A program made the position numbers and the translations under genes. The notes under the pieces were generated by a model that saw nothing but the letters and a program-made list of their open reading frames with translations, had not been told where the DNA came from and searched no databases. From Antedon mediterranea (taxonomy: Eukaryota; Animalia; Echinodermata): DNA of 64,000 nucleotides. Location of the stretch: assembly GCF_964355755.1 (NCBI RefSeq), contig NC_092678.1, positions 22,027,365 through 22,091,364 of the forward strand, in the 5' to 3' direction. How positions within the stretch are numbered: the first letter of the stretch is position 1; every line of letters starts with the position of its first letter. Below, in pieces: positions 3,701-53,100 of the stretch.

Positions 3701-6700
3701 ACACGCCTGTCCGGTATAGCGATAAAACATGTATTGACCAAACCAGCATTAACAAGGGTGTCAAACGCAATTAAGAATCGTTCACTTGAATTAAAATGAC
3801 CTCAATCGAACACTGATCATGCGGCCACATCAAAGAACATTTTTATTTGATTAGGATGTCCCGCGTTGTAAACTCCACACCATGACAATTGACTAGGCGT
3901 ATTGTTTCCAGCATAGAGATATGCACTATAATATCTCTATGTTTCCAGTCAAATACGTTATGACAATCGCGCTGGTTTCGTTGAAATTTCTTCGAATTAT
4001 CTAAAATTATTTTTGTGAAGCGAGTTTAAAATTGTAATTTGCATGTACAAATTGTTTTCCTGCCGTCGTGTTATTTTCAGTATTTCTGTCATTATCATAT
4101 TGACGCATTATGCAAGTAAATTGACTTTAATTTAAATAATTATGTTCAATATTTTGTAAATTTGCATATGAGAGCTCGTCACATGTCGGACGCATCTGTA
4201 TCTGTCAATAATGTGTTTAGTGTAGTGTGTGCGCTGTAGAAAATAAAGGCTTAAGTACATCATAGGCCACTGTAGGCCTATGTTATTAAAATACAGCACA
4301 CTGTGACTGTTCTAATATAGTAACCATTACTTGTAATTGTTTAAGGGGTCCTACACATCAGACATAAAGCCTTTAAAATTCATTTTCTACTTGAATTTGT
4401 CACAAACCTGTCACAAAGGACAAGGCCTACTTCTAATGTCACAAAAACATTTTCACTGTTTTGCATGCCAATATTTATAAAGCCGCATTCGAAAATGTTA
4501 GCATTTAATCAATTTATTCACGCAAAGTAAAGGCTATAGATTTCTAGTCTTTCCGTGTTATATTATCCGTCGCGTCTAAACGTTTACCCAGTATGAATAA
4601 GGTGTTACGACTCAAATTGAAATTATTTCTAAATTACTAACGAAAATACAAACCACCGGGGGACAGGCCTAGATCTATATGGAGTCAAACGGAAGGCCTG
4701 TCAGTACTCCCGAGCTCAATTAATTTACTGTAGCAATTGGGACTTGATTCGAACAATATGTCAAAGAGAGCAGGCCTACAACAGTTTCTGAGTTATTTTG
4801 CAACTGTTGCAATTGTTGGCGTTTCATACTAAGAAAATAACCATGGAAAACGGAAGGGGTAATTCAACTATGCCTGTCAAAATTGGGCTTGATACGAATG
4901 ATATATAAAATAGATGTTGGCGACTGTTGCAATTTTAAATAACTTTTTATATTAAAAAAGGTAATTTTTTAGTTTTCATATATAGATGTCGTATAATTAA
5001 ATTGCCTTCATTGATTGAGGGTGGGGGGGGGGGGGGGTGGCGGAATTATGAATAATTTGAGATTGGAACTATTTTAATCTAGTCCTATTATAAGGCACGC
5101 ACCATTTCATACCAAGGCGAATCTTGTTAGATTGATAGTTTGACAAAAAAGTGTTGTGCCCAATATGATAGTGATATTCCCAAATATGGTATAGTGATAT
5201 GACATCATCATGACTGTAGGATTATTGCGATAATCTTATATACGATCGAGTAATATTTGCTGCCACCTACGGTTGTGTGGTACAGTTCAGCTATAGTCGA
5301 GTTACTGTAGACATGTGTAATTGAGCTGTCCGGAAATTCCGTCTATATTTCCGTGATCTGTTCCGTACGATTGCTTGTGTAAATTACAATGATAAATGTA
5401 AGTTTATTATATTTATGTGATACTATTTGTTTAGTCATAGTTACGATATTTTGCCTTTAATTATGAGATTTATCTTGAACATGTGCTGCATCGTGGTAGC
5501 CGCCATTTTGAGTGATACGGTAGACTATATAAGACAAGGTTGTTATGATAATAGACCAAAACATTTTGTAATATTCCTAAAATATATTTAGGCTAAATTT
5601 AGTATCCGATATATTGGTTCACATGATAATGTTGATTCTTTAGATGCTATGTATGTAACTTAGAATTTCTAGGTATAGACCGGTTGCATAAGAATGTTCA
5701 CTCTGAATTTGATCCGTCACGCATGAGTGATTCGTATCTGACCTCGCGTCGACTTAACTTTGCTGTAGGTTAACATTATTTATAGATTAGAGTTGCTTTT
5801 TGTTCTGAATGGAGGTTTGTTTATACGTATGAGTTAAGCAGGGATATTGATACATAATGAATATAATTATATTGTTTTAGGCTATGGAGTTATTCATGTG
5901 CTTTTGCTAACCTGAGAACGTAACTGTAGAAACTGTACGCTGTATAATCTGGAAGTATTTATGCCCGGCAAAGTTGTGAGTCATGTTAAAATCTATGTAA
6001 AATGTGGTATTATGATGAAAGTTACCAAGAACATTAATGACAAGTGTATGAGAAACATTATTGTATCTGTATTTTAATACTTAGTATTGTTTATATTTGA
6101 TTATGCTTTTAACAGTTTATTTATGATTGAATGTTGGTATGGAGATTTGTAAATGATTATTGAGGTTATATGCTATGGTATAAGGTTAAAGGTTGTTTAT
6201 GATTCTTTTCTGTATTTATTTGTAGAATTGAATGAGACGTTTAATAAACAGATTCATCTCAAACTTATTCCCGTGGTATATCTACTCATTTGCTAACCTG
6301 TGTGTAGTCGTCCGACCTTTTCTGTACAATTCAATTAACTGCTGCTAACCAGAGAAGAGCAACGATGGCTACGATTGACCAACTGCGGATAAACAGGAGG
6401 AACCGGAAGGGGAACCTCACGAGGGTGATAAACGAGTTATCACATTTAATGGAAAGGAAAGCTTCTGAAGCGGAGATTTCCACTGCGAAGGCAAAAGCAA
6501 AGACGCGGTTTGAGCTTGTAGAAGAGTCCCATGACAGTTTGGTCGAAAAGATAAATGATGAAGAGGAATACGAGACAGAACAAGAGTGGATGAATCACTG
6601 CCAGGATCAATTCATGACCGCAATGGCAAGATTTGAAGTAACAAGGGATGAGGTAATCCAAGAGAACGTATCTATAGATAATGAATCTGATGATGTACTT

Positions 6701-9700
6701 ATAAGTAATGTAACAAATAATGTGTCTGATAGTGTACCGATAGAAAATATACCTAATGTTAGTGTATCCGATGATGTGTCTAATAATGTAGATAATACAT
6801 CTGATTCTAGTGGTGGTGCTACTGGTGTATCTAACGTAGATAACACTTTAGTAAGTCTGTTTAAAGCATTAACTTTGCCACAGACTCCAATAAGGCAGTA
6901 CGAAGGCGATCCACTGTATTACCATGCATTTATTACTTCTTTTAATAATACTGTCTCTGGTATTCCAGAAGACAAGGTAAAGTTAAACACTTTAATGTCT
7001 TTGTGCGCTGGCAAGGCGTTACAATCGATCCAGTATTGTGTATTGAAGCCCCCTAATGAAGGGTACCAATCAGCTTGCAAAACTCTTAAAGACAGATATG
7101 GCAACACAGCCGTTATTGTGCAAGCATGGATTGGGAAAGTATTGGACCGGCCCAAAATTGATGCATCTAAGCTAGGCGACTTTGCGGATGATCTGGAGAA
7201 CTGCCATGAAGCACTGTTAGCTTTAGGTTTTCTTAATGAACTTAACAATCAGAGTAGTCTAAAGCAGATAATTGATAAGTTGCCGAGATTCCTGCAGAAC
7301 CGATGGCAAGGAGCGAATTACAAGCTGAAGGAAAAGGGAGTTGTACCTGGCTTAAGTGATGTGGTGAAGTTTGTCAAAGCATCGGCAAAGGAGATCAATG
7401 ATCCAGTGTTTGGGAACACTACCAACGCTACGGCTGAAGTTCAACAGTCGAGACAGAAGAAACACCAGGTAAATAACGTTAATGCTTCAGTTCCTTCACA
7501 GAGTTCTGCAAAAGAGAAGTTTCCAAAGTGCTGGATATGCAAGTCTGATGCACATTGGCCAGATGAGTGTGAGAAGTTTAGCCAGATGAAAGTAGAAGAT
7601 CGATTCGAGCTGGCAAAATCTAATCATGCATGCTTTTCCTGCCTCAAGATAGCAGGACGCAACCATCGGCTGAGTAATTGCTCAAGAAAAAAGGTATGTG
7701 GAGAAAAGATGGGCGAGAACAACTGTAACAGGTATCACCACAAACTTCTTCATTTAACAAAGAAAGCTGGTGTCGGCCATGTGAGTGTTATTGGTGATAA
7801 GGAGCCTTTGCTGTGTGTTCTAGACGTAGAAGTGATTGGGAAAAATGGGAGTCATGTGGCAAACGTTATGCTGGATCTTGGGTCACAGGGAACTTTTGTG
7901 AGAACGGATTTCGCCAACAAATTGGGGATTGGTGGAAAGAGTGTGGCTGCAGCAATAACCAAAGTAGGAGGCGTGGAAGAAATCTTCGAGTCACGGTTGT
8001 GTGAAATAAAGTTGCAGGGAATGGATTCGTCTGTTCACAACATCAAAGCCTTAGAAATGCTGACCATCAACGATGTGAACAGTGTCAACATAAAAAATTT
8101 AGAGAAATTTTTTAATATGAAGAATACTCTGAGAAGACGAGGTGGGCCGATAGACATCTTAATTGGAGTCGATCATGCCTATTTGATGACCGGAGAAACC
8201 AAGAAGACTAATGGCCTAGTGGCATTGAAGACGCCATTGGGATGGGCTGTATTTGGTGGTAACCAGAAGGATGCAAGGTTTAACCAGGTTATGAATGTGA
8301 AAGTAAGCAAACCAGTCAATTTAGACAACTTTTGGTCCGTTGAAGCGATGGGTGTCGATGTTGGAAATTGTGAGTGTAAGGCAAGACTTAGCGCAGTAGA
8401 AGACATGGAAGGGAAACTAATTGAAGACTCTAGTTCGAAAGTTGGCAATCAGTGGTTGATTCCCTATCCATGGGCGAAAGATCCATCTCAACTTCCCAAC
8501 AACAGAGGCCAAGCAATTAAAATGCTAAATGGTTTAGAGAAAAGGTTGAAGAAGAATAAGGAGCATGGTGCGGCTTACCAAAAACAAATGGAGGAAATGG
8601 TCAAAAAAGGATTTTCTCGCAAATTAAACAATACGGAAATGAAATTATATCAGGGACCTGTTCATTACTTACCACATCATGCGGTAGTCAGGGCTGAAAA
8701 TAAGAGTACACCCGTGAGGATTGTATTCAACTCGGCAAACCGATGCCAGGGGGGAGCGATCAATGAGTACTGGATGAAAGGTCCAGATCTATTGAACAAT
8801 CTGAGTGGGGTGCTGATGCGGTTTCGTGAAAGAGAAGTTGCTGTCTGTGGGGACATTTCAAAGATGTACCACCGAGTGCTGATACCAGAAATGGACCAGC
8901 ACGTACACAGATACTTGTGGCGAGATCTTAATTCTGATCGAGATCCTGATACCTATGTTATGCAAGTGTTGACATTTGGGGATAAGCCAGCTGCGGCAAT
9001 GGCGCAAACTGCTCTCAGGTTAACCGCCAAAGAGGGTGAGGAAATGTATCCAAGAGCTGCGCATGTGTTGAAGAACGAGACGTACATGGATGACATATGT
9101 GTTTCGGTGACAACGATCGAAGAGGCGAAAACCCTAACCAAACAGATGGATGCCGTGTTAGGCAACGGAGGATTTAATATCAAAGAATGGATATCAAACA
9201 AACCGCTAAACAATGAAGAAAGAAAAGATAAGGAACAAAAGGTTCTGGGTGTCTCATGGAACTACGCGGATGATACACTGAAGGTTAAGGTGAAGCTAGA
9301 TGATGACATTACGAATGCAGTAGTAACAAAGAGAAAGGCGTTGGGTATGATTGCGCAAGTTTTCGATCCAATTGGATTTTTGGCGCCAGTGGTTGTGAAG
9401 CTGAAAATAAAGATGCAAGAACTATGGAAGTCAGGTGTTAACTGGGATGAAGACCTGCCTAATGAAACTCAACAAGAATGGAGAATATTACTAAAAGAAC
9501 TCAACAATGCAAGTGAAATCAAGCTGCCAAGATGTCTGACTCCGGATAATTCTACTGACGCGCAATTGATAATTTTCTGTGATGCATCTGAAAAGGCGTA
9601 TGGGGCCTGTGCTTACCTGAGATGGAGACTGCAGGATGGTTTATTCAAAACAAGATTCGTTACTGCAAAGTCTCGAGTGGCACCGCTAAAAAAGTTGACC

Positions 9701-12700
9701 ATCCCAAGACTAGAGTTACAAGCCGCAGTTATGGCTGCTAGAATGGGTAAATCTATAACTGATGAATCATCGCTGCCATTAACAGATGTATTGTTCTTCA
9801 CAGACAGCATGATAGTGTTGGGTTGGTTAAAAAAGCCATCATGCTGCTATAAGCAATTTGTAGGTACGAGAGTACTGGAAATACAGAACAAAACGAAACC
9901 TGAGAATTGGAGACACGTGTCCGGAGTGGAAAACCCGGCTGACGATGTTTCTAGGGGAATTCCAGTGACAAACTTAAATGGAAGATGGATAAGAGGGCCG
10001 CCATTCCTGCAGAGTCCAATGCATGAGTGGGAACAAGAGAATTTGAGAGTGGAAGACGATGACAGTGAAATAAAGCTTGTAAAATTTACTGGAAATGTAG
10101 AGATAAAGCAAGTGAGACCGGAGGTGGAGATTGATAACTGTGAAACGTGGGAAGAAATGTTGGAAGTCTATAGAAGGAGAATCTATGGTGATGATTCACC
10201 AGCACTGGATGTCTATAAAGTCAGGGACATTGAGTTACTACTTTTGCGAAGGGTACAAAGAGAATGTTTCGCAGAGGAATTACAATTGCTTCGAAATGGT
10301 AAAGGTGTCCAGAGTAATAGCCGTATATGTAACTTGGATCCTATGTTGGAAGCAGAGAATGAAGTGATCAGAGTAGGAGGACGGCTTAGAAATGTAGAGA
10401 AAATAGACTTGGATGTTCACCCAATACTATTGGATCCGAAACATCGCATCACCAAATTGCTAATTAGAAGGGCGGATGCTAATGTATTCAATCACAGCGC
10501 AGGACCTAATCAAGTTTTCGCGTACTTAAGAAGAAAGTACTGGATCCTAAAGGGAAGAAGCCAAATCAAGTCTGAATTAAGTAAATGCATTGAATGTCAG
10601 AAATGGAGGAAGGGACCAGAAACCCCTAAGATGGCAGAACTTCCAGAAGCTAGACTAAGAATTGGTAAACCACCATTTTTTTCTACTGGAATGGACTGTT
10701 GGGGTCCTATGATGGTGAAGGTTAGAAGATCCCAAGAAAAACGATGGGGATTAGTTTTTAAGTGTATGACGACTAAGGCAGTTCATTTGGAGATTCTTCA
10801 TAACATGAATACAGATGCTTTTATCATGGCGTTTAGACGATTCGTGTCTCGCAAAGGAGTCCCGAAGGAATTGTACTCCGATTGTGGAACAAACTTCAGG
10901 GGAGCGGAAAGAGAATTGCATGAGTGCTTCAAGGCTATGAGCCCAGCTTTGCAAGAGAAACTAGCACAACAACAGGTAGAGTTTAAATTTAATCCTCCCA
11001 ACGCACCACACTTCGGAGGCGTCTGGGAAAGAGAGGTTAAGTCGGTGAAGAATGCCATTAAGTGTTCCTTGAAAGATCGAGTAGTAACGGAAGTTGTGTT
11101 GCAGACAGTGATAGTTGAAGTGGAAGGCCTAATGAACTCAAAGCCGCTGGGTTATGCATCATCCAATGTTTCCGATGCTGATCCGGTTACTCCGAATGTT
11201 CTGTTAATGGGTAGGCGTGACCCATCTTTACCATTTTCATTAGTCAGTCCTCAAGAAATCAAAAGCAAGAAGCAATGGCGCCATAGTCAGCTTATCATTG
11301 ACTTATTTTGGAAAAAGTTTGTATCGGAATATTTACCAAGTCAACAAATCAGACAGAAATGGGATAAAGAAACAGAAAACTTGAAGGAGGGTGACCAGGT
11401 GTTAGTTGTTGACAACCAAGCACAGAGAGGAGATTGGTTAACAGGAGAAGTACTGAAAGTTCATCCCAGTGCAGATGGACGAGTAAGGGTAGCGGATGTG
11501 AAAATGAAAGAAAAGGTATACAAACGTCCAGTCGTAAAATTGATCAAACTGGAGGAATGGAAGCATTAAGCTATACTGTATTGAAGTATCACAGCTGAGC
11601 TAAGATGGATTAGTTTCTTTGTATTAAATTATTAATCTGTTTAAGTTTAATACACGACTTGCTTAGTTTAGAGATATTGTATTTGTATCATGTAGTTGCC
11701 TTTATTTAGTTGATCTTTTGAAATGTTATAAATGTTTTGTTATAATGAGATTTCCTCATTATCGGGGGGAGTGTAGGATTATTGCGATAATCTTATATAC
11801 GATCGAGTAATATTTGCTGCCACCTACGGTTGTGTGGTACAGTTCAGCTATAGTCGAGTTACTGTAGACATGTGTAATTGAGCTGTCCGGAAATTCCGTC
11901 TATATTTCCGTGATCTGTTCCGTACGATTGCTTGTGTAAATTACAATGATAAATGTAAGTTTATTATATTTATGTGATACTATTTGTTTAGTCATAGTTA
12001 CGATATTTTGCCTTTAATTATGAGATTTATCTTGAACATGTGCTGCATCGTGGTAGCCGCCATTTTGAGTGATACGGTAGACTATATAAGACAAGGTTGT
12101 TATGATAATAGACCAAAACATTTTGTAATATTCCTAAAATATATTTAGGCTAAATTTAGTATCCGATATATTGGTTCACATGATAATGTTGATTCTTTAG
12201 ATGCTATGTATGTAACTTAGAATTTCTAGGTATAGACCGGTTGCATAAGAATGTTCACTCTGAATTTGATCCGTCACGCATGAGTGATTCGTATCTGACC
12301 TCGCGTCGACTTAACTTTGCTGTAGGTTAACATTATTTATAGATTAGAGTTGCTTTTTGTTCTGAATGGAGGTTTGTTTATACGTATGAGTTAAGCAGGG
12401 ATATTGATACATAATGAATATAATTATATTGTTTTAGGCTATGGAGTTATTCATGTGCTTTTGCTAACCTGAGAACGTAACTGTAGAAACTGTACGCTGT
12501 ATAATCTGGAAGTATTTATGCCCGGCAAAGTTGTGAGTCATGTTAAAATCTATGTAAAATGTGGTATTATGATGAAAGTTACCAAGAACATTAATGACAA
12601 GTGTATGAGAAACATTATTGTATCTGTATTTTAATACTTAGTATTGTTTATATTTGATTATGCTTTTAACAGTTTATTTATGATTGAATGTTGGTATGGA

Positions 12701-15700
12701 GATTTGTAAATGATTATTGAGGTTATATGCTATGGTATAAGGTTAAAGGTTGTTTATGATTCTTTTCTGTATTTATTTGTAGAATTGAATGAGACGTTTA
12801 ATAAACAGATTCATCTCAAACTTATTCCCGTGGTATATCTACTCATTTGCTAACCTGTGTGTAGTCGTCCGACCTTTTCTGTACAATGACCATAAATATG
12901 ATCGCATCACATTTTTATATCACATGAAGTTTGATAGTGTAGACAGAGCTTATTGATTTATGCAGTATATCAATACCCCTTCCCCATTTACGGTAACATT
13001 GTTTAATTAATGAACTGTAACATGAAGCAGCTCATAACAAATTTGAAGAATGTTAATATCTTGTACAGTACATCCTACTAAAGTTTGAGAGTGGGTTGTG
13101 GCAGTGGATATGCGGAAAATCCGCTGTTTATACTATTTAAAAAAACAGATCATTTTCTTCTTAGTCACACATTAACATCACAAAAATGATATAATTATAA
13201 TGTACAGTACATCACACTTGTCAAAGGGGGGGGGGGGGGAGGGCCGGCGAGGAGAGTAGATTTTAGAAAAACCCTTCGCCACCATATTGCCATAAAACAG
13301 ACATTTATGAGTCATAAAATGAAGACCTCACATCTGAGCTTTTCAAATGCAACAGGACATTCAATTGTAAAATTGAGTAATATTGATTTAACTAATTCAG
13401 AGCAGTTATACTAGTCTTCTCCTTTCAAGTGAAGATAATTGCTTTTGACAAGTTCCTATCATCGATTCTTTTTCAAACGCTAACAACCCTTCGTTGCCTT
13501 TCACAAAATAAGTGTATCGATCTAATGAAATGTACACAGTTGGCCAATCGATGAAATATTTTAATACTTTAATAAAGCAAATAAAATATTAATTGATGAG
13601 TGTATAGTTGTATTTTAATTAATTTATTTCAGCCGTAATGATAGAAGCAGTTTTCTTTTTTCAGGATTCCAAATAAGCTTTCAAGCCTGGCACAGTGGCG
13701 TAACGGATATGAGCGCTCACTGGCTAAGCCTATGGCACCGGAGCTTATGGGGGGCCCTGAGAAGTGCCCAGAGGAAAAAACGGTCTCTTACGCCACTGTC
13801 TTGAAATAGATAAAGGCTTATTGCTTCTGCAATAGGTTTTCACAGGACAATTGTTTATTTCATATTTTCGTTGAAATATGCCTTTAGGCTTACAACGAAA
13901 TTAGAACCAATCGAAAACAAAAACCATGTTATTTATTAGGATATGATGTAATGAATACAACATTATTAAAATATGTCTTGGAACGTCCATTCAGTTATTC
14001 TTTCATATATGAGTGAAATCTGGAATAAATTGTTGAATAATTGAATAATTACGACTAATTTAAAGTTATTTAAATAAAAACGAACGATTCAAGAGTGTAC
14101 ACATTATTCAAACATGAACCTGGCAAAGTGTCCACTGCCCCTGCGATATGACTCAACCGATGAAAACTATGTCTATTGAAGTCGGTTCAATGCACCTTTA
14201 ACTCCCTAATGCAAAGTATACTCTATTTTGATACATTTTAATTTCAAAATGTACATTAGAAGCGTCTGACTGTGTACATGCATGATGTGTGCAGTCAATG
14301 TGTACCGAATGAATCATTCTATAGCGTATATACTATATTGTTCCTACAAAAGTGAAATTCGTGATTCCCGAAGAAGGGTAGACACGCGTAAACTTTACTT
14401 CACTTTGCCCTTAGACGTTTGGGGACTTTTGGGGTACCGGTGGTAGATGATTTAACAACTCTCCTTCGTGTGGCCATGTCCTCCGCCATCCCCAGTGTCT
14501 TACTCACTCTTCCCTGGTCTTATTCACAGTTGTTTTGTTAAAGTAACGGAGAACGGTGCCGTATTCCTTTCCGTAAAAAATAGTGTGAATATAAGCTGAG
14601 CGCCGCAGAAACATCCTGTTTTTTCAGTGTCAAACGTTGAATCTATTCCTATGATGAAAATGTATTAACCTCACTGTTGTCATGAATATGGGACCAGCTC
14701 GATTACCGATTACCTTCCTGAGTGTAATAAAAGACTACCGTAAGGTGACTCTGACCAGCATAGAACTTGTAACATTCATGGCAATGGCTTAATATACAAA
14801 AGGCACCAATTAAGTTATGGAAAATCGGAAAATAATTGACCACGATTTCAAACTACAAGAATGATATATTTAGGCCTATCATTACATTTATTCATTTACA
14901 TTGCAGGTGGCTGGGAGTTGCTAGTGTGGGAGTAAGCAACTCTGTAGATGTAAATTACGATCCTAAAGCGTGTAAAAAAGTTCCAGGATTAGTGAGAGAA
15001 CAGAAATCAGTATGTCAGCGGCAACCGGATACAGTTCGAGTTATCGGCGAAGGAGCTAGAATGGGAATATACGAATGTCAGGAACAGTTCCAACACGAAC
15101 GATGGAATTGTACTGTTTTACCAAATGATGAAAATGTTTTTGGAAAAATGATGCAAATTGGTAAGTTAACGATTGATTCTGGGACAACTTGGCATTATAC
15201 ATACTTATGAGGAAGTTCTAGACGGCGATTTTCATACGTATAATACTTAAAAATGGAAACGCCGACTCAAAACACTAACATCATAACATAACCAGATAAA
15301 AGTATGGGTGTCCCAGTGCGAACGGCATGAGTATCAATAGCCAGTGTTTTAGGGCGATCGAAGAGAGCAAAATGATTTGGCACCATCTCCATTATAATAT
15401 TGCACAATAAATACTATGGAAAAAGAAAGAAGGTAATATTTACAGAAAGTTACAGATACAGATTCTGAATATCCTTGGGGACAAGCGATACATTGTTTTA
15501 CTGTATACTGCAAAACAAAAATAAGATTTTAAATGATAAGGAACATCTTTCAACGAAACATCCGTGACCGAGTTTTTATTTTACAAAATTTATTTTATAA
15601 AATCTTTTTGATATTATTATTATAAGATACAGAACAGAGAGCTTTCACTCCACCTGTGTTTTTACTAATTTTGTCACGCAATTTATTTTAGTCATTATTC

Positions 15701-24700: not shown

Positions 24701-27700
24701 TGATACGGTAGTCAATATAGGTCATTAACCAGTCTTCTTTCTGAGTTATTAAAATAGTACTATGCACTTTTGAAGTTCCATTGAGGTTGAAGAACTTGTT
24801 ATAATTATTATCTTTATACAATTTTGAGGATTTAAATCTTCAATAAAATCCTCAGTAGACCATGATATATCTATTCTTCGTTGCGTTTTATTACATAAAA
24901 CCGCCGGTTGTGAAGAATATTGATAGATGTGGGGAAACTGACAAACAAACGAATAAAAGCCAAAAAGGAAATACTGTTCGCAATTATACAGACGAATTCC
25001 AAAGTTGTATAATAATATATTTGATTTATTTCCGTAAAATAAACGTAAATAATGTGGGAAAACTAGAATTAAAAACAACATTTTGTGAATATAAATTGTT
25101 GCTATTACACGCAAACTAAATGGAGTGTGACCGGAATTTGTATAGGCCTACTTAGAAGATTTTTAACACACATAAATCGACTGCTTTTGTTTCGGTAATA
25201 TTATAATAATAAGCTACTATAGTTAATTGAAAATAGGTTTTAGTAATCTTCAGTTCTTTAGTTACGATTGGCCTTCATAAAGGCATGTAACTTATTTGTT
25301 TAATTGGTGTATTTGCTAATAATATTTTATAGTGTTGTTGTAAAATGTTAACTACGGTATACGAGGAAGAACAGTGGACACATAAAAGAACCACACACAT
25401 TGAGATTTTGTGTGGACGGTTTGTGATGATCTGGCCAGGGAGTTGTAAAATATGAACTCCCTGATCTGGCCTTCCTGGCCTACGAAATTCTCATTAAAGG
25501 TTGGTTCCCACTAGAGACGCAACACAAGGACGTAACGCAACATAAGTTAGTTGACCAATGACAAGCGATGGATTATTCAAACTGACGCTTGTCATTGGTC
25601 AACACGCTTGCGTTGCGTTTACGTCCTTGCGTTACGTCCTAGTGGGAACCAAGCTTAAAACTAATAACTGTGTTTTCCCCCGCCTGCGTGAAATCAAACC
25701 TACGATGTTTTTTTAAAATAAATTTAAAATGTTTTTCTTTTATTTTGAAAGAGATATTTAGAGAGTCAAGTTAATTTAGGATAGGCAGAGGCTGGTCCTG
25801 AACACTTAAATTATTTCCATATTTCGACGTCCAATTTCCGGGCACCTAGCAACTCTATTTTTCAAAATTATTAGCTCCACCCAACCATAGTGGGCTTGTA
25901 ATGTAGATTTTTAATTTCTTTTCATATATCAATGTATACGTGCAATTAGTTTCTTTTAACTAAATCTTATCACCTTTGTTAATGGTAATTGATTATGCTT
26001 ATGCTGTTTTTGTTGGCAATAAAGTAAAGTATAATTCCCGGGGACCTAGCAGCTCTATTTTTCAATTTCTCAACTCAGTCTGTGGCTGAAATACTTATTG
26101 CCTGGATCCTCTTTCTTTTAAAGATTCTGGATCCGCCCATGTTGATTCTTGTGTTTTGGCTCCTACGATTTGAACTTTAAACTTAATTCAATATAATAAA
26201 TGCGCACGGACATGACGATATGTGTTTAATGATAAATATTATTTTATTACGGTGTCCTCCACTGTAAAATACAGGGTTAAAACCCTATAAATATAAACAC
26301 TACACTACTTGGATAACACTATTTGTATCCATCATTAATATTTCCGTTGAGATACGTCGATACTCTCATCAACGAATATTATCAGCATCATGTGTTCGGA
26401 TAAATGAACATTGAGCTCATTAAGAAACACATTAAAATGATTAATGACGACTAAGAATGATTAATTAATAAATGTTTATTTCGCAAAATAAATGTTGTCA
26501 TTTTCAGCGCGTCAATAACACTACAAATAGACACAGATAGTTAGCAAGGCAAGCGTTTAAAATGTTAACTTTGACTGATGGTCAGATGTGATCATGAAAT
26601 AGATAGACACGCATTATCTCAAATGTTAATGTGATCATGAAATAGATAGACACGCATTATCTCAAATGTTAATAATGTGATCATGAAATAGATAGACACG
26701 CATTATCTCAAATGTTAATGTGATCATGAAATAGATAGACACGCATTATCTCAAATGTTAATTAAACATATTCATTAAAATGTAGAATGCCTAAGCCAAC
26801 ATTTTAATTGGAATAAATGTATAAATAAAGAGCATTGTATTAATTGCCTAATAAATAATTAAATTGTGCTAAACCACTACCTTGAAATTCTCCAACCTTC
26901 AGTTTAAAACGATCGTTGTCTTTTGTGTAAGATACGATTTTGGTTTACTTTAACCTTTGACATTACAAAGCTAAGCCGCACAAGTACATAAACAAACCTA
27001 TTTTAACAGGATTTGTGAACGATTTAAGTATGTGTATTAACATGCCAAAAAAAGTCCTTAAATAGTCATATAAATAGATCACATGACCTCAGTACCTACA
27101 TCATTGATGATATTGATGTCTGAGGCTTAGTTATTTTCCCGGGTTATCGCTAACTTTGGTGGTGGGTAGAAACAAACTTACCTGGCTAAGATTATCATAT
27201 TAATTCAATTTGTTAATCAATTCTGTTGTTTTTTTATTTTTGTAGGCAGTCGAAAAACAAATGAAAGTTTCATGTCGTTGTCATGGAGTCTCAGGATCAT
27301 GCGCAATGAAAACATGTTGGAATAGTATGCCACATTTTCGAAAAGTTGGAGAATACTTGAAAAAACTGCACAAAAACGCCGTCGAGATTTTACCGCGCGG
27401 TAAGAAGCGACTTCGCCGAAAAGATACGGAAAAACGAAAAGTTCCGATTAAGTTCAACGAAATGGTCCACATTGCCGAGTCGCCGAACTACTGTTCGAGT
27501 GATCCGATACAAGGAATTAAAGGTACAACTGGCCGAGAGTGTAATAAAACATCCAATGGGGCTGATGGCTGCAACCTGCTTTGTTGTGGGAGAGGATACA
27601 ACACACAAGAAGTCCGAATTGTTGAACGATGCGACTGTGTCTTTATTTGGTGTTGTGAAGTGAAATGCAAATCGTGCGAAACAGTTAAAGACGTTCACAC

Positions 27701-27710
27701 TTGTAAATAA
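738..27710 (+). CDS. Wnt16: Wnt16, 4 exons: 738-841, 14907-15160, 17449-17735, 27246-27710 (369 aa)
   Basis: GT-AG junctions with consistent phases (1110 nt total). Signal-peptide-like N-terminus, then ASWMWLGVASVGV, GTKETAFVYAV, WRWGGCSDDV, CRCHGVSGSC, SPNYC, GADGCNLLCCGRGYNT and terminal DVHTCK. WMWLG-AS-GV, GADGCNLL and DVHTCK recall vertebrate WNT16. Confidence 0.93.
902..1285. mobile_element. Degenerate Tc1/mariner-type MITE
   Basis: Inverted ends AGTAGAACCCATCCTT...GGACACCCCTATTCAG and CTGAATAAGGGTGTCTCTAAGGATGGCTTCTACTG. Related fragments occur near 3205-3365 and 53220-53280. Confidence 0.6.
5215..6328 (+). repeat. 5' LTR (1114 bp)
   Basis: TGTAGG...CTGTACA. AATAAA at 6243-6248. Internal splice-like signals: GTAAGT 5398, TTTTAG ending 5880, GTGAGT 5976, TTTGTAG ending 6225. 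Confidence 0.97.
6365..11569 (+). CDS. BEL/Pao Gag-Pol polyprotein (1734 aa)
   Basis: Gag with YEGDP and three Zn knuckles (CWICKSDAHWPDEC, CFSC..H...C, C..C.HH.LLH). Protease MLDLGSQGTF, RT YMDD, RNase H FCDASEKAYG and KSRVAP, integrase GMDCWGP / SDCGTNF / WERE. This is the Belpaoviridae domain order. Confidence 0.97.
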   Translation: MATIDQLRINRRNRKGNLTRVINELSHLMERKASEAEISTAKAKAKTRFELVEESHDSLVEKINDEEEYETEQEWMNHCQDQFMTAMARFEVTRDEVIQENVSIDNESDDVLISNVTNNVSDSVPIENIPNVSVSDDVSNNVDNTSDSSGGATGVSNVDNTLVSLFKALTLPQTPIRQYEGDPLYYHAFITSFNNTVSGIPEDKVKLNTLMSLCAGKALQSIQYCVLKPPNEGYQSACKTLKDRYGNTAVIVQAWIGKVLDRPKIDASKLGDFADDLENCHEALLALGFLNELNNQSSLKQIIDKLPRFLQNRWQGANYKLKEKGVVPGLSDVVKFVKASAKEINDPVFGNTTNATAEVQQSRQKKHQVNNVNASVPSQSSAKEKFPKCWICKSDAHWPDECEKFSQMKVEDRFELAKSNHACFSCLKIAGRNHRLSNCSRKKVCGEKMGENNCNRYHHKLLHLTKKAGVGHVSVIGDKEPLLCVLDVEVIGKNGSHVANVMLDLGSQGTFVRTDFANKLGIGGKSVAAAITKVGGVEEIFESRLCEIKLQGMDSSVHNIKALEMLTINDVNSVNIKNLEKFFNMKNTLRRRGGPIDILIGVDHAYLMTGETKKTNGLVALKTPLGWAVFGGNQKDARFNQVMNVKVSKPVNLDNFWSVEAMGVDVGNCECKARLSAVEDMEGKLIEDSSSKVGNQWLIPYPWAKDPSQLPNNRGQAIKMLNGLEKRLKKNKEHGAAYQKQMEEMVKKGFSRKLNNTEMKLYQGPVHYLPHHAVVRAENKSTPVRIVFNSANRCQGGAINEYWMKGPDLLNNLSGVLMRFREREVAVCGDISKMYHRVLIPEMDQHVHRYLWRDLNSDRDPDTYVMQVLTFGDKPAAAMAQTALRLTAKEGEEMYPRAAHVLKNETYMDDICVSVTTIEEAKTLTKQMDAVLGNGGFNIKEWISNKPLNNEERKDKEQKVLGVSWNYADDTLKVKVKLDDDITNAVVTKRKALGMIAQVFDPIGFLAPVVVKLKIKMQELWKSGVNWDEDLPNETQQEWRILLKELNNASEIKLPRCLTPDNSTDAQLIIFCDASEKAYGACAYLRWRLQDGLFKTRFVTAKSRVAPLKKLTIPRLELQAAVMAARMGKSITDESSLPLTDVLFFTDSMIVLGWLKKPSCCYKQFVGTRVLEIQNKTKPENWRHVSGVENPADDVSRGIPVTNLNGRWIRGPPFLQSPMHEWEQENLRVEDDDSEIKLVKFTGNVEIKQVRPEVEIDNCETWEEMLEVYRRRIYGDDSPALDVYKVRDIELLLLRRVQRECFAEELQLLRNGKGVQSNSRICNLDPMLEAENEVIRVGGRLRNVEKIDLDVHPILLDPKHRITKLLIRRADANVFNHSAGPNQVFAYLRRKYWILKGRSQIKSELSKCIECQKWRKGPETPKMAELPEARLRIGKPPFFSTGMDCWGPMMVKVRRSQEKRWGLVFKCMTTKAVHLEILHNMNTDAFIMAFRRFVSRKGVPKELYSDCGTNFRGAERELHECFKAMSPALQEKLAQQQVEFKFNPPNAPHFGGVWEREVKSVKNAIKCSLKDRVVTEVVLQTVIVEVEGLMNSKPLGYASSNVSDADPVTPNVLLMGRRDPSLPFSLVSPQEIKSKKQWRHSQLIIDLFWKKFVSEYLPSQQIRQKWDKETENLKEGDQVLVVDNQAQRGDWLTGEVLKVHPSADGRVRVADVKMKEKVYKRPVVKLIKLEEWKH
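11772..12885 (+). repeat. 3' LTR (1114 bp)
   Basis: Same length as the 5' LTR with no differences found by eye. Preceded by the PPT and followed by the TSD ATGAC. Confidence 0.97.
18611..18762. mobile_element. PIF/Harbinger-type MITE, family A (TIR AGCTCTGTCTACACTATCAAACT)
   Basis: Terminal inverted repeats with internal CCCAAATATGGTAGTGATATG repeats. About 15 complete or partial copies in the window: ~5130/12950, 24297-24452, 29200-29345, 30934-31081, 31654-31765, 32820-32948, 36052-36170, 36379-36475, 38767-38930, 39107-39291, 43390-43505, 53040-53165, 53327-53504, 55585/56856, 58975-59105. Confidence 0.85.
18828..19838. mobile_element. Non-autonomous Kolobok-type DNA transposon (1011 bp)
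   Basis: Perfect 16-bp TIR AGGAAAGGAACACCCT/AGGGTGTTCCTTTCCT flanked by TTAA at 18824-18827 and 19839-19842. AG...CT termini with a TTAA TSD are characteristic of Kolobok. No transposase ORF. Confidence 0.85.
21940..22430. repeat. CTAG/TAGGCCTA-rich low-complexity tract
   Basis: Dense iteration of CTAG, TAGGC, GCCTA and CTACTA words. Confidence 0.7.
23620..24250 (+). repeat. About four degenerate 150-175 bp tandem units, probably inside a DNA transposon remnant
   Basis: Recurring ATATCTC...GTCATAGAGAGTT...AAATGTTCAGAA...TGACCGGAAGTA...CCTTTGACC. The TGACCGGAAGTA-like word occurs at ~23749, 23899, 24073 and 24225. Confidence 0.65.
25498..25655. mobile_element. PIF/Harbinger-type MITE, family B (TIR AG(G/C)TTGGTTCCCACTAG)
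   Basis: Near-palindromic element with a TAA TSD. Relatives at 28229-28385, ~29398-29510, ~60050-60196 and 60718-61195. Confidence 0.8.
26586..26760 (+). repeat. Tandem repeat, 4 x 43 bp
   Basis: Unit ATGTGATCATGAAATAGATAGACACGCATTATCTCAAATGTTA at 26586, 26629, 26675 and 26718. Confidence 0.95.
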
Positions 27711-30000: not shown

Positions 30001-34749
<4,749 letters not shown>

Positions 34750-44181: not shown

Positions 44182-47100
44182 ATGAGTAAGTATGCAATTT
44201 TCTTTTTTTTAATGTGAAAAAATTGATTGATTGAAGAAGGAGGACACAGCTGTTCCAGAAATACAAATTAAGTGTAGCGCCCCCAACGTTCATATCGTTT
44301 TATGGAGTAGCGATTCCGAAAACATATTGTATACAAACCACACGAGGTACCCGGAAGCGATCAAGCATAAAACGACTGTATTTTAATAGCCAATAAAAAC
44401 AAATAAAAACCGCGAAAGCCAGAAAAATAATGAATATTCATTAGAACAACCCTGGATGAAGGTGAAAAAGATGTTGATGTCGTTTTATCACGTGGATTTT
44501 CAGAGGGAATCTAACTGAAAGTTAACCAACATTGTATACCCAACGCCAGTTTTTTTCTCAAGTGATACATTTAAAAAGTAGGTATAAATGTTTTTTTCCA
44601 TATCAGTTTAAAAATAATTTTTTCTGTTGAATTCTTTGATTTAGTTGGATACTTTAGTTATCCTTGAATGTTTTAACAAGGTTCGTATCCATATTGCCTG
44701 GCTGGATTTTTTCCTATGCTAGCTAGGCCCAGGCCCCTTGCGTGGTTAAAACCAGCTGTGTAAGACTAATGGCTGTGTATTTTTAACAGGTAAACATGTC
44801 TATTCTGGGGCCTGAGTGACAGTTTACAGCTGTTTCTAGTAGGCTAGCCTGGTCCTAATTAATAATGAGGCCTAGCCTAGGACCTAGCTAGGCCTAAGAT
44901 ATTTAAAAAATCATATTGGGAGGGGAGTTACACTACAGTAGGTCAGGCTACATGCCTATACTATATATAAAATATAGGCTACATCATCAGCAGGTTAAAG
45001 GCCTAGCAGCCTACCTAAACCTTCTTAGTCAAAGATAATTGTTCTCGGGGGTGTAATATATTAATAGAAAGAAGCTATAGAGTACTGTGACATTAGATAT
45101 TTAATTATAACAAATGTATATTTCTTTCATATTTGTATTGTATATTTATTATTAATACAGTATTTTGATATGCAATCAAAATCTGAATCAGTAAATTACA
45201 TCAATTTCCGTTATCAATCAATTAATATATTAAAACCACATTAATATAAAATAACATTCAAAAAATTCAATTACAATTCATATACCATTTGTTAATGTAT
45301 TTCCAAAACCATTGTTCTAGCAATAAAAAAAAACCACTACCATTCATACAGTATACTGTACATAATATACAATACTGTAACAATTAATTACAACAAATGT
45401 ATATTTCTTTCATATTTGTATTGTATATTTATTTATTCTTATTTTGATATGCAATCAAAATCTGAATCAGTAAATAACATCAATTTCCGTTATCAAATCA
45501 ATTTCTTAAAACCAAATTAAAATAAAAATAACTTCCAAAAAATTAAATTACAATTCATATACCATTTGTTAATATTTCCAAAATCATTGTTCTGGCAATA
45601 ACAAAAAAACCACTACCATTCATAATATGTACAATACTGTAACAATTAAGTGAGTGAGAAATAGCAAACTATTCCTCAACTTTTCTGCACTTGGGCCTAG
45701 TCACCTCATGCTGGATATCGGGTGAAATAAAAGTCAGATGTGACTTCATGATTGACATAAGCTGGTCAAGGTTGCTCTTTAATCCATATACCGCCCTTTT
45801 CCGGCGATTAAATTCTGAGTGGATTAATTCGCCGCCTTGCTCAGCTAAGAGTCCAACTCCTACTCTCCATTCTCTCATGAACGGTATTGTGTGGTGCTCC
45901 AACATGTGCAATTTTGGTTGAATCACATTTGGAGCGATGCGTCTGTATTCTTTGGAGAACAGTTGTATGTGGGTTTCTGTTTTGTGAAAAAAATTTTAAT
46001 ATTTTATTTGAAAGATGTATTGTCTTTTGAAATGACAAAAAATCATGAATTAAATTTTAATGTAACAAGAAAGTTTATAAATGAGAATTTAAATTATACA
46101 GATGTTTGAAGAAATTAATCACACATTAAGAATAAATAAAACCAGACAAAATTCACATAATTTGGTCATCAGTTTTTGCTTACCATATTGATCTATTTCT
46201 GAATCAGTGATGCGCCTCGTATGGTTTATGCATTCATGGACATTAGTAAAGGTTTTGAATACAGGTGTAAATGATTCCTGTATCTTGTGCAATTTTGTTT
46301 CAAGCAGTTGCTTACAGTTTGTAGGACAGTGATGTATCTGTTGCTTTAAAGTCATTGAGACACCATCCATGAGCTTTTCTATGATGTTGAACTAAAAATA
46401 AAATATATAGTTTAAAATAAAACGTTTACAGTATGGCGAGAGTCAATCGCAAATAATTCTTAATTTTATTACTTATTTTGCTGTGTAAAAATTAACGAAC
46501 TTCACATTTTAGAAATTTTAGTTACTCACTTTGCATGCTCTGTATACATGGTTTCCCACAAAACTCTTTCCGTGGTACTGCTGTCGAGGAATTTTATTCT
46601 TCCTCAACACCTCGTCCATTTTTGTACATAGAGGTCCAGTTCCAAATTTTATCTCTTGGTTCATAGTGCTTCGCTATATAAAATATAAAAGAAATATAGC
46701 ATTAATTTTTATAGTATTGTATATTTTAGACATAATTTTAAATTTTAAAGGTGTATACTGTAGTACTGACCAAGTCTTTGACCTCTTGTTCTTTCAGATT
46801 TATTCTGTGGCCAGTCTCTGCAATCTCTGCAATCTTGTTATGCTGTTTTGTCACAAGTGACACTGAGAGCTCGTTTCTTAAATCCTCAAGATTCTCTTCT
46901 AAAGACTGGATTTTAATCATTGTAGCATTTCGATGCGCTGCAGCTTCTGATATGCTTTTCTCAAAGTCTGCTAGATGATCACCTGAGATTAAACAATATT
47001 GGTCAATCAAATAAATTTCAATCTGCATCAAAAATGAGCATCAAAATTAGTATATTTAAAAAATGTTAATGATAATATGGATAATTCATAGAAAAATAAG

Positions 47101-50100
47101 TTTCAGCCAAAGGTTTGTTTATTATGCATAAAAACAGGATAAACAATTTCGAAATTTACTGAATTCTATGCTGAAAGGGACCATGTATATTTTAAAAGCA
47201 ACTTCACCAATTGAGTTTATTTAATGTCAATGTAAAGTTAAAACAACATTTGAAGTTACCAGTCAAGATGTCACCATCCTGTCGCATGTTAAAAATTATA
47301 ACATCAAGATTGTGCACGTCTTTTTCCAGCATATCATAGAGTTTCTTAAACAACCCAAGAGAAATGTGTAATGCTGGTATTGACACCTGGAAAAATAGTT
47401 GAGGAAATATTTAATAAAGAGGTATATTTATAAATTACTGTAACAATTGTTTGTTTTGACAGTTATTTTATACTAACATTGTTATTTAATATGGAAGTAC
47501 AAACACACATTTCATTGTTTGGAGTGTGTATTAAACTTTCTAAATTGAGATTTTAATTAATTTTGAATTTAACCTAACATAAACACTGGGGACCTGTGCT
47601 GTTATGATTATTTACCTACCCTGTTTAATTCGATGTGTACCAGGTATGGCCTAACAACGCTGTGCGATATTGTTTTGCTTTTTTTTTTGTCACTCCCATG
47701 GTCTACAAAAGACTTGTAGTCACGATTGTAGGTCTTGAGACATCTACAGGCTTGAGGAACATTGTTGGTTCTAATGTCATCTTGATTACAAAAACAATAG
47801 ATGCAACTGTACTTTCCTTTAAAAAAATCAATTTTTAAATCTACATAATATATATAGTACTTCAGTTTTGTGTAACAAATGCCAAACAATGAGAGCTAAT
47901 AGCCAAAATATAAAAAAAAAATTGTATTGAAACTGGAAATTGTACTTACCATTTGGGCCAACAAGTCCATATACCTTTGACAAAAAATCATAATCCCCAA
48001 AAAAGAATAGGCGGATATTGTGAGTTCTGTAAAATGAGAAGTTATTTTCATTCAATTACCATGAATTCTAATTAATTACATTAATCATAATTAAAGATAT
48101 ACAAATTATGTAACATTTTCAAATTAAGTTGCATATTATAATTATGTAGCTCTGCTATATACTTAAGTCAGTGTTACTCATTCCAATATTATACTACTGT
48201 ATTTAATATTACTTTTTGGTCTTTGGTGAGGTCCACTGGTTTCCATCTAAATCCATGACTTCATCAAGAACCAGTTTCAAGCCTTTTTCGACATTAACTA
48301 TAAAATCTGGTGCTTGGAATGCCAAAATGACAATAATATTGTGCAGTGCATTGGGTTTAGGTAAACTGCAAATTTGAACTTCAAATTTAGTGGTATCACC
48401 ACCCTTGTCTCCTCCAAACTTGAGAAATATGTCTCCATCTTTGAAGAAGTTCAATTCATCAGACCTACAAAATTTAAAATTGCTTGTTACAAAATTAAAT
48501 ATAATTTAAGTCTTCCCTGACTAGATTTGTAATTATTTTATTCTTATATTTATACCACATGCAATCTATTATAGTATATATAATTTGTGCCAATAATACA
48601 GTACTGATGTATGAAATAGGTTTGTTTAAAAATAACAACAAAAAATGTTACATACATATCATATTTGTTTAGGTAGTCATAGATTAGTTCTTTGATTTTG
48701 GTTAGTCGGACTACTGCAACCTCTTCCAAAACAAGACCTCCTATAGATGTGGCTCCATCTCGTTTGACAAACATGTATTCCATAGAATCTACTATGTGAT
48801 CACCGATAATCTGTTCTTGGCAAATGCGCATTTGCCTTTCAGAAGCCAAAACTCCTGGGCAAAATCTATATTAAAAAAAAAAATGTATATACAGTACTGA
48901 TTAATTATAGTTTTTATAGTTTTCTATAGTATTCTAAATTCAATTAAAAAAAAAGTAAACTGTTGACTGAATAATAGTAAACAGTGGCTGTGTGGCCCGA
49001 CGGAGGTCCACATACCCGACACGAAAAGCAATAATAAAATAAATTACCTCCGCAGTGCTCGTTGCTGGCTCCAATTTATGCGGCAGGCATTCATGATTGC
49101 CAAACATCTTTGGGGGTCCATTTTCTCTTCAGTACTGGTAACACTAACAGTTGTTGTGCACTCTGATTGTTTAACAATGTTGATTGGCTGAATTTGATCA
49201 AATAAAATATTTGTATGATTTATCAAATAATAATGTATAATGAGTGAATCAAGAGTGTAGGCCTACATTATGATAAATTTAAATTAATTGTAATGGGTTA
49301 AAAAACTCACCCGTCCTCGAGTCATAAGTGACACTTTCTTATTATTCATAAGGTCTTTCCGTACTATGTTGTGTGCCATGCTTTTCAATTCTTTTGGCCA
49401 AACCTCATTTGTTTGGGCAGTACATGTAATTTCTTCAACTGCACTTAAAATTTTGGTGAATGCCTGTTCTTTAAACGTTTTGCAAACATGATTGGGGGTT
49501 TCTGACCAAACTAATTGAATTTTACATTGTTTGCATTGCAAAGGGACTCGTTTAAGCGATTGTTCTACAATAAGTGGAACTGGTTTGAGATCTTTGTTAC
49601 TGACAATTTGGCTGCAGTTAAAACAATCAATTGATTCTCGTCCTACTGCCTTAAACAATTTGTTTATGCAAAATGTACAAAAAAAATGTTGACAAGGCGT
49701 CTGCTGGCTGTCAATTGACAACAAATTATTGCATATCTGACATTCATACACTTGATTATCGTAATTTTCAAAAATTTTAAATTGAGGATTTAGTAGCAAG
49801 TGCTCATGAGTGGGAATAAAACTGCCAGTAGTATTGCTTCTGTTTTCGGGAAACTTGCATTTCTTCAGCCTTCGACCAGGTCTTGATTGTTGACTGAATA
49901 AGTAGCAGGCTAAGCATTTGTCTCCATGGTCTTTGAAATTAAATGGTGTTATGTTGTGTCCACCAAGTGCGCTAACGTGACAGCTTCCACATAGCCACTT
50001 AAGATTTGGATCCAAATTATATTCATAAGTGTACTTTACATCTTTTATTTTAAATTTTTTTCCGCAACAGTAGCAAAGGGAACTCAATGCCCTTTCGTGA

Positions 50101-53100
50101 AACTCCATTACTGTATATGAAATAAAATATAAAAAATTTTAAATAAAAATAGCTCCGCAGCTTATCTGTGAAATATATTTGTAATTGTATGTGTAATTTT
50201 TATAAAGGCCTATAATAGTAGTATAGTTACAGTAATGACTGTCACTCAGTCACACCAGCTAGCCTAAAAATGCACCAGAAAAGCAATAATTATTATTATA
50301 AACACATGCCATTAATTATTTGATAACAGTTATAATGATTAAATTTAGGATTAGGATAATTAAAGGTTTTACTACTACGAATTTTCTATGTTTGGGCCTA
50401 GCTTCATCCTAGGCCCACATTACTGTCAAGTTTATCGCCGGCTTCAACGCACTTTCTAAGCCTATCGCCAAACAGTTTTCTCGCCGATAACAATAACAAC
50501 GTATAAAGGGGTTGCAAAATATGCGAGTTTTACTAAAAACTGAACCAGGCTATATTAACATAACTTGTATTATTTTATTTATATAATAATGATGGCCTAT
50601 ATTCTAGTTCGTTCTTTTTCTAAAAAAATGAATTATATCCAAAAAATAAGTTAGGAATACAATGATATTTTCTACTTACGATTGTTTACTATTTCATTAC
50701 ACAGTTTCTATCGACTTCCTGGTTTATGTGTGGGAGATTATTTCAGTAAAATGGACAATATCGTCGTTTATTTATTAATTTATATTAAAGAAACAATAAA
50801 ATATTGATTTTTTAATTGAACATAAACTTTTTTAATCGTTTGGTTTTATATAAAATGTGTTTTCTACATAAAAACTAACGGTAGCAAAATTTAATTTGGC
50901 GTTCGCGAAATAATGGTTTGTGTACAAAATTCATAAGTTCGCGCGGATCGGAGAGCGTCGTCTGCTAACACTGAGGGCGCTTTACTTTTTCTGATATCTT
51001 AACACTAGTTGAAACAGCTGTGAGGACGACTCTATCGACCGACGACGGCCGGAGAGCCCTACTGAACTAGTGAAGGTTAAGGTTAGGCCTAGCTCTAGAA
51101 GCATTTTTTTTTTTCATGATAAAAGTTTCTAAATTTCGAAGAAAACATGGAGTCAAGTATATTATTAAGAAGACAAACTGTGAAATAATAGTATTTTTAT
51201 TATTCTAGCTAGGCCAAGTTACTGACAGGTATATACTATTTATAGGCCAGCCTGTCAGTGTTATTAAATTAAAAAGTTAAAATTCTCTCTTTCGTTTTTG
51301 TATGTAGGTTGGGGACGCCTATACCAACGGTTCATTTGTGTATGCATCATATCAATTTTACTGTGCTTTTTCATCGTTTACCAGCTACAACCTAATCCGT
51401 CAGCAAACAGGTATTCTACAGTAAATTTATTTTATCCAAGTCATGTCGTGTAAGTAAAGTGCCATTTTTGAAGATATTGAAGTTTTAAATTCTTTCTGAT
51501 TTCTCTTTATTTTAGCAGTAACAAAGGAGAAGTGGATTCGTTACTTATACGTGAAATAGAGTACGACAGACCTCCGAAAGAAGACGTAAAAGAATACGAT
51601 AGACCACCGAAAGAAGATGTCGCAGAATATGATAGACCTCCGAAAGAAGACGTCGTAGAATACGATAAACCACCGAAAGAAGATGTCGTGGAACACGATA
51701 AACCACCGAAAGAGGACGTCAATATCACCAGTAATCGGTCCAATCGAGAAAAACCCATTAAAAATAAACCAGAGCTTCTAAGACCTCAACAGTTTGGGAA
51801 AATGGTTCACTTTGCTACCAACGATTCAATGTTTGATTTCAGGACAAAAATAGATTTTAAACCAACAGTAAGAAAGTTTTTAGTTGATAAACAAAACATA
51901 CAAAAATCATTATGACCAGTAGTAATATGTTTAATATTTTTTCCCCCAGACTTGTCCAAATTCCATCCAGAAAAAACTGCAACAAAGTAAATGGGCATCA
52001 GAGATGTTCCTGCCAAATATCACCATGGCGATGCATGAGGGCGCCATGTCTGAAGAGGAGTATAATCGACTGCATGCGTTCGGTATGCCGTTTGGGCTTA
52101 GCTTCCGAGATGACTTATTATACTCAGGTAAATGATGACAAATAGGAGATATATTGTATATTAATATAAAGGCAAATTACTGACAAAAATGACAATGCTG
52201 TCGGTATCAGTGGCTGGATCTCAATGTAGATACAAAATAAAATAAGCAAAAAGCTAAATCAAAACGATAAAGTAAATGAGCCAGAAAAATTAGCGTTTAT
52301 ATATTTATATATAAATATAAATCCAAAGGCAAATTACTGAAAAAAATGACAATGCTGTGGGTATCAGATATATATATATGTATATAAATATATAAACGTA
52401 TCATATCTAAACGTATCAGGCACAGAAACAATTCTAAACCTCCCAGTGATATACTGAAATTTAACTAATTCATTTGAAACGATAAGATGAAGAAATCTGT
52501 GAGAATGAGAAAAATCGCCCCAACCGAGACTATATTTATATATGATACTTACTGTATGCTCAAAATGAGGGTGATTTTCCTTTGTAGAAAAGCCTATTTG
52601 ACCGTGATTGGTTGGTTTCATCTTCCGATCATCTGTAAATTATTAAATGAAAACATTTAACTGTGCTCCATTCCTTAGTTCTAATATGGGTCCAAGATAT
52701 AAATAGAATCTGGGACAGATGGTGTCAATCCAAGATTTTTTCTACAGTATTTTAAAAAGCTTTTTCTTCTGCAGATTTACAAGCAATCCTATCAAAGCTA
52801 CCTCGTGTGGACAGTATATTAGACTTTTCTGGTAAAGAGAGACCATCATGCCTCAGCTGTGCCGTTGTAGGGAATGGCGGCATTCTGAACGGATCTAAGC
52901 TTGGCAAAGAAATAGACGAACATGATCTTGTCTTCCGGTAATTTTATATTCCTCATATAATATTTGTAAAAATACTATTGTTGTTTTATAATGTATGTTT
53001 ACTATACAAATGAACCAATTTATATGTGTTTTCTGAATAGTGGTTGGCCAAACTTTATGTGACAAAAAAATGGACATAATGATGTCAAATCACTGCCATA

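Follow-up and report, generated by a model that had tools for sequence, protein, structure and literature searches.

One-turn offset between the two ends of an intact Chapaev transposon in Antedon mediterranea and in most Chapaev families checked

The timing and origin of the 12/23 rule of V(D)J recombination are debated, and a DNA transposon of the crinoid Antedon mediterranea raises the question whether a comparable design of one short and one long end is also found in the Chapaev superfamily. The element occupies positions 44245..51022 (6,778 bp, minus strand) of a 64,000-nucleotide stretch of contig NC_092678.1 (assembly GCF_964355755.1, positions 22,027,365 to 22,091,364), hereafter called the window. 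A first-pass annotation had proposed that this RAG1-related Chapaev transposon carries bipartite ends with spacers of 12 and 22 bp, and that its transposase may enforce an asymmetric pairing of these ends. Comparison of the end sequences with those of distant relatives indicates that an offset of about one helical turn is common to most Chapaev families checked and not a one-off.

The end sequences, coordinates and spacings given by the annotation could be reproduced. The outer terminal inverted repeat (TIR) lies at 44245..44257 (plus strand) on the short end, 3′ of the transposase gene, and at 51010..51022 (minus strand) on the long end, 5′ of the gene, with 12 of 13 positions identical. The inner block (44270..44290, plus strand, and 50967..50987, minus strand) is identical at 13 of 16 positions, a match that stretches to 16/21, and begins at terminus position 26 (44270) on the short end and 36 (50987) on the long end, which gives an offset of 10 bp. 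A third shared block (13/14 identical), located at 44327..44340 (plus strand, position 83) and 50914..50927 (minus strand, position 96) and thus offset by 13, was found in none of seven relatives and is present in the window element only. Of 3000 random pairs of 60-bp windows, 27 contained a block of 13/16 or better, whatever the offset, and the best inner-block score of the two ends was matched by 4 of 1000 shuffles. When aligned across families, the long end corresponds to the short end plus an insert of 10-11 bp right behind the roughly 10-bp TIR. The annotated spacer lengths of 12 and 22 bp, although correctly measured, therefore depend on where the block edges are drawn, and the 10-bp offset appears as the robust quantity for these ends.

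In contigs from four read runs and three organisms, the terminal 43 bp of the left end are free of indels. The first indel among close copies is situated just behind the inner block, and the first 46 bp have one listed substitution. One low-depth left-end contig had eight substitutions and no gap over 46 bp, and one diverged right-end contig, covering 50733-51022, had 23 substitutions and two unplaced gaps. The close left-end copies are nearly invariant in spacer sequence and too similar for testing spacer turnover. Queries with the transposase's N-terminal or linker part, aimed at close full-length relatives, returned only the window element's own family or nothing.

For distant relatives, 81 loci were fetched (80 of 91 metagenome matches were kept), and both ends were recovered at 11 of them, representing seven families and, together with the window element, eight. 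Their transposases are 22-60% identical, and a target site duplication (TSD) of 4 bp was present at six of the 11 loci. No full end pair was found at locus L081 or at the long loci L075 and L077, and viral contigs contained no relative. Locus L081 (8213-11420) is an intron-containing Chapaev transposase in a contig of a bacterial metagenome-assembled genome, probably eukaryotic DNA that was binned there. The best inner-block offset was -10 for the window element, L016 and L018, +10 for L031 and, tied between 9 and 10, for L036, and +11 for L073 and L076. An offset of 10-11 bp was hence best in seven of eight families (six of the seven relatives), and an offset of 0 in none of the eight. Since 10 or 11 is obtained in a fraction of 0.089 of random pairs, the binomial p is 3e-7 for 7/8 families and 1e-5 for 6/8, kinship being ignored in both values. 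Freely varying spacer lengths, which would speak against an enforced asymmetry, were thus seen neither among close copies of the left end nor across families. The inserts that distinguish long from short ends have unrelated sequences in different families. In a tree built from 20 of 43 rows, the three families with the long end at 5′ do not form one clade and sit on separate deep branches (approximately unbiased test, p 3e-36); end polarity switches once (support 99/98), with one long and one short end kept per element. The L074-type family kept the positions 20/31 in four loci with both ends, three of them with TSDs of their own.

The nonamers of the recombination signal sequences of the 12- and 23-bp type (RSS12 and RSS23) start at positions 20 and 31. 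Similar to this, the inner block of the relatives, which is CACTTAG-like, starts at positions 20-21 in short ends and at 31-32 in long ends. With a motif trained by leaving out one family at a time, 20 of 26 ends had their best site at 20-22 or 30-32, against a share of 6/42 expected by chance; these 26 include 10 single ends picked by eye from a pattern list, of which seven had their best site at these positions. Among the fetched loci, a repeated terminus starting CACAGCAGTT with an A-run at about position 31 was also seen (L074 15670, L075 7234, L080 1422); it is possibly another Chapaev-type end, and its partner end was not found at these three loci.

Chapaev transposons that combine a Chapa domain with a RING domain were reportedly described by Kapitonov and Jurka in 2007. 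Such elements, and a definition of the superfamily that includes CAC...GTG termini, are found in the Chapaev passages of PMC4411706 and PMC4079192. By sequence, the window element fits this definition and the other characters of the superfamily, which belongs to the CMC group: CAC...GTG ends with a short TIR, a TSD of 3-4 bp, here the 4-bp AGGA (44241..44244 and 51023..51026, both plus strand), an N-terminal Chapa domain followed by the RING of some subgroups, and a DDE core with C(2)C, LH and H(4)H motifs. The annotated likeness to the RSS heptamer extends to CAC and 5/7 identity; CAC...GTG is the general Chapaev terminus according to the passage in PMC4079192. The Chapaev3 group, with its 3-bp TWA TSD, was rejected as an assignment on account of the 4-bp AGGA. 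A Transib/RAG-like assignment was rejected as well: such elements have a 5-bp TSD, and identity to the RAG1 core, which exceeds 30% for TransibSU, is 12-16% by structure here. No open reading frame fitting a RAG2-like gene was seen in the 0.9 and 1.4 kb outside the transposase gene, a RAG2 profile search not having been run. Because of this low identity, the 4-bp TSD and the missing room for a RAG2-like gene, the window element is not considered Transib/RAG-like.

The element is an intact, insertion-polymorphic cut-and-paste transposon. A contig of read run X1 fuses the two flanks and skips 6,782 bp, i.e., the 6,778-bp element and one TSD copy, and an empty site is also present in run X6, which stems from another organism. 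Furthermore, several differing flanks abut the left terminus in all four read runs. Since empty alleles exist and the left terminus occurs next to several flanks, recent mobility can be inferred. Within the 3′ untranslated part of the element there is a tandem duplication of about 300 bp (45100-45650), where relatives skip from 45387 to 45655. The reads additionally contain a diverged, internally deleted relative (covering window positions 44245-47900 and 50175-51022, with joints such as 45751 to 46552), the contig depth of which is much above that of the element core and which is probably a non-autonomous family.

The transposase gene lies on the minus strand and consists of 11 exons separated by 10 introns, all GT-AG, that together encode 890 aa without internal stop. 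Exon 1 (49311..50108, aa 1-266) encodes a Chapa/NZD-like zinc region, a C3HC4 RING with a zinc finger, and a GRP motif. Exon 2 (49048..49187, aa 267-313) encodes a short linker and then a helix that aligns with RAG1 from residue 459 onward, and exons 3-11 (45669..48865, aa 313-890) encode the RNase H core with D402, D478, E834 and the C(2)C, LH and H(4)H motifs. A database protein, P0005, is equally long and, compared by eye, identical in sequence; its cluster comprises five proteins named Antedon mediterranea by their source and located on contigs of three sizes. In 25 sequences D402, D478, C497, C500 and L564-H565 are invariant, and E834, H812 and H817 are at least 90% conserved. The RING (PF00097) exceeds the Pfam cut-off, and DUF1280 is matched as well; all homologues found are unnamed DUF1280 proteins. 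Judged by the motifs given in the relevant part of PMC1131882, the first Chapa motif is present with an R to Y change and the second is degenerate.

The annotated relatedness to RAG1 is supported by the domains, the core motifs and the fold. A profile built from relatives matches RAG1 residues 99-405 (E 1e-17); a search of PDB sequences with profile A1 gave no match at E 0.01. For the AlphaFold model of the window transposase (mean pLDDT 79), Foldseek ranked RAG1 first (E 1e-16), followed by BbRAGL (6e-12) and HzTransib (6e-8). According to VIA, residues 286-885 align with RAG1 459-1008 (Z 26.5, root-mean-square deviation (rmsd) 4.1, 464 aligned residues) and the RING with 1RMD (Z 12.5), the P-element transposase being a weaker match (Z 12.3).

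In the relatives, the transposase may also contain a counterpart of the nonamer-binding domain (NBD) of RAG1. The stretch from the G-R/Q-P motif to the first core helix measures 70-79 aa in 13 complete homologues (of 24 records counted, 10 were incomplete and one had 32 aa), and the equivalent RAG1 segment is about 75 aa long. This region fills 74-77 of 77 columns in six of the seven relatives with both ends, and only 43 in L036. In a model of the L018 region (pLDDT 87), residues 70-129 align with the RAG1 NBD (391-456 in 3GNB; Z 4.4, rmsd 4.2, 59 aligned residues), residues 70-310 are collinear with RAG1 395-724 (Z 10-11), and Foldseek alignments are about 60-70 columns longer on RAG1 chains that contain the NBD. 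A starfish-named protein of the window's clade, P0009, has a linker of 32 aa compared with 73 in its sister P0008, which may reflect a shared loss or a gene-model error.

Based on end sequences and structural models, the offset was probably selected since synapsis favors one short and one long end, as does RAG with 12- and 23-RSS. The RNase H core would grip the outer 10-13 bp and cut at CAC. In typical Chapaev elements, binding to the inner block, at position 20-21 or 31-32, would be the task of the NBD-like three-helix segment behind the G-R/Q-P motif; dimerized and on a flexible linker, this segment would favor a short/long pair of ends. In the crinoid lineage it would have been deleted and the one-turn offset retained; the inner block at 26/36 would probably be read by the zinc region at the N terminus or by a host protein instead. 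Taken further, it is possible, at a tentative level, that the 12/23 design, with an NBD-type dimer and inner blocks near 20 and 31, predates the split between Chapaev and Transib/RAG and is still obeyed by RAG2-less Chapaev transposases; the crinoid element would then be a natural variant in which the NBD is deleted and the one-turn rule is kept via another DNA-binding part.

Several points weigh against this reading. With respect to the offset, the TSD-verified locus L056 has no significant inner block, L016 and L018 are without TSD and were chosen after their inner motifs had been seen, and a search that started from the termini gave 5/6 families. The four families with the short end at 5′ form one clade, so that the independent lineages number about four and not seven. 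The inner block does not resemble the RSS nonamer above chance (at most 7/9 identity, mostly 1-5/9), and the window element, with 3/9 at position 20 of the short end and 6/9 at position 31 of the long end, does not exceed other ends, which agrees with the annotated distinction between the two. As for the NBD-like segment, the case is carried by position and length, and the Z of 4.4 from one model is weak taken alone. The window transposase itself has 27 aa, disordered in the model, where relatives have 70-79; the adjacent 123-bp intron leaves no room for the segment, and the alignment to RAG1 begins only at residue 459, behind the NBD. Moreover, both window ends missed in the leave-one-family-out test and score nothing on the relatives' motif, their block being different and sitting further in. 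Finally, it was argued (in the part of PMC7204232 dealing with it) that invertebrate RAG-like enzymes respond rather little to TIR asymmetry. Because its transposase lacks the NBD-like helices and its block lies off the family motif, a NBD route like that of RAG cannot act in the same form in the window element, and such a mechanism is better supported for the relatives. Either the block of the window element is read by another part, such as a host zinc-finger protein or the zinc region at the N terminus, or the offset is no strict rule.

The latter would hold if the inner block were a real transposase site with conserved helical phase and no pairing rule, the long/short state being an old inheritance. 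Conservation of phase accounts by itself for 10-11 bp, the NBD-like domain of BbeRAGL is given a non-essential role in passages of PMC7204232 and PMC10629977, the window element is intact and insertion-polymorphic without such a segment, and L056 lost its block and has a TSD nonetheless. However, an explanation by phase alone would permit an offset of 0, which no family has, and asymmetry stayed when polarity flipped, so that we regard it as rather unlikely. Improbable is a host-factor site in the window element, i.e., a CTCF-like zinc-finger half site or a promoter element unrelated to end pairing. One 9-bp half of the CTCF consensus is matched by both window blocks, the annotated likeness holding for a half site only, and of five 9-mers of this type in the window two lie in the element ends; the departure from the family motif and the missing NBD-like segment would fit a host site, too. 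Yet neither block matches the consensus in its 5′ half, the likeness is not common to the relatives' block, and a host site needs no 10-bp offset equal to that of relatives with a different motif. It is very improbable that the inner block is what is left of a longer TIR after a neutral indel of 10 bp: adding an insert behind the TIR to the short end does yield the long end, and a block like this has a chance of about 1% in one element, but the same 10-11 bp recur, with unrelated inserts, in lineages that are 22-31% identical.

Selection for short/long pairing would connect Chapaev with systems in which asymmetric ends are already described. With RAG1-RAG2 and its RSSs, the window element shares RAG1 as best fold match, the CAC terminus and bipartite ends one turn apart; it differs by the low identity, the 4-bp instead of 5-bp TSD, an outer block of 10-13 bp, an inner block that is not the nonamer, a transposase without NBD, and no RAG2-like gene seen. 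RSS12/23-like ends are reported for five Transib families (in PMC1131882), and asymmetric ends for subgroup I Transibs and AanRAGL (in PMC9435367). These elements likewise have asymmetric bipartite TIRs, with a GRP-type NBD equivalent, but in the passages concerned they differ from the window element by a 5-bp TSD, ends of CACAATG and an A-rich nonamer, and the absence of Chapa or RING. PflRAGL-A has a spacer asymmetry of 10 bp (passage in PMC10629977) and in ProtoRAG a 27/31 asymmetry is functionally required (in PMC8289069); as described there, both resemble the window element in end asymmetry and RING, but carry RAG2L and a CCGHC tail, neither of which was seen in it. In the Drosophila P element, the transposase site lies 9 versus 21 bp from the TIR, which was already likened to 12/23 in the corresponding part of PMC7776569; there, a THAP domain, a 31-bp TIR, an 8-bp TSD and a 12-bp offset set it apart from the window element, as does the weaker fold match. 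While the relevant statement in PMC8355894 limits 12/23 asymmetry outside V(D)J to some Transib families, later work adds RAG-like elements. For Chapaev, the passages on this superfamily in PMC4411706, PMC4079192, PMC12730594 and the preprints 10.64898/2026.01.24.700457 and 10.64898/2026.08.26.747230 do not mention end asymmetry, and no published report was found in a search that did not extend to Repbase Reports, most subscription journals and supplements. Unlike the Chapaev descriptions found, most of the families studied here have the 10-11-bp end offset and, in the relatives but not in the window member, a putative NBD-like segment.

Regarding its surroundings in the window, a possible splice donor follows the transposon (44241-51075 stretch) after about 50 bp, sialyltransferase (PF00777) exons lie downstream, and the transposon may interrupt a first exon. 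The sialyltransferase exons (52773-52942 and 59785-59954) are duplicated 7 kb apart with 99% identity. Further host exons at 14836-15210, 27246-27710 and 31125-31487 belong to the Wnt family (PF00110 for 27246-27710) and to a peptidase M24. A BEL/Pao long terminal repeat retrotransposon occupies 5212-12068, with an open frame of 1,753 aa (6308-11569; PF05380, PF18701, PF03564) and direct repeats (5212-5511 and 11769-12068) that are 100% identical over the 300 bp shown; it is likely very young.

Altogether, a conserved one-turn end geometry in Chapaev, a known superfamily, is apparently undescribed and extends a design of its sister groups. The design of one long and one short end that underlies the 12/23 rule is likely older and more widespread than previously described. 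Chapaev is a separate clade that shares the N-terminal zinc/RING region of RAG1 and, if the reading given here is true, its one-turn offset together with the NBD-like segment would place this design in the clade's common ancestor, without RAG2. Intact and polymorphic, the window element is a ready substrate and, owing to its missing NBD-like segment, a natural contrast to its relatives; in this case, the NBD-deleted crinoid element would make the origin of the 12/23 rule directly testable.

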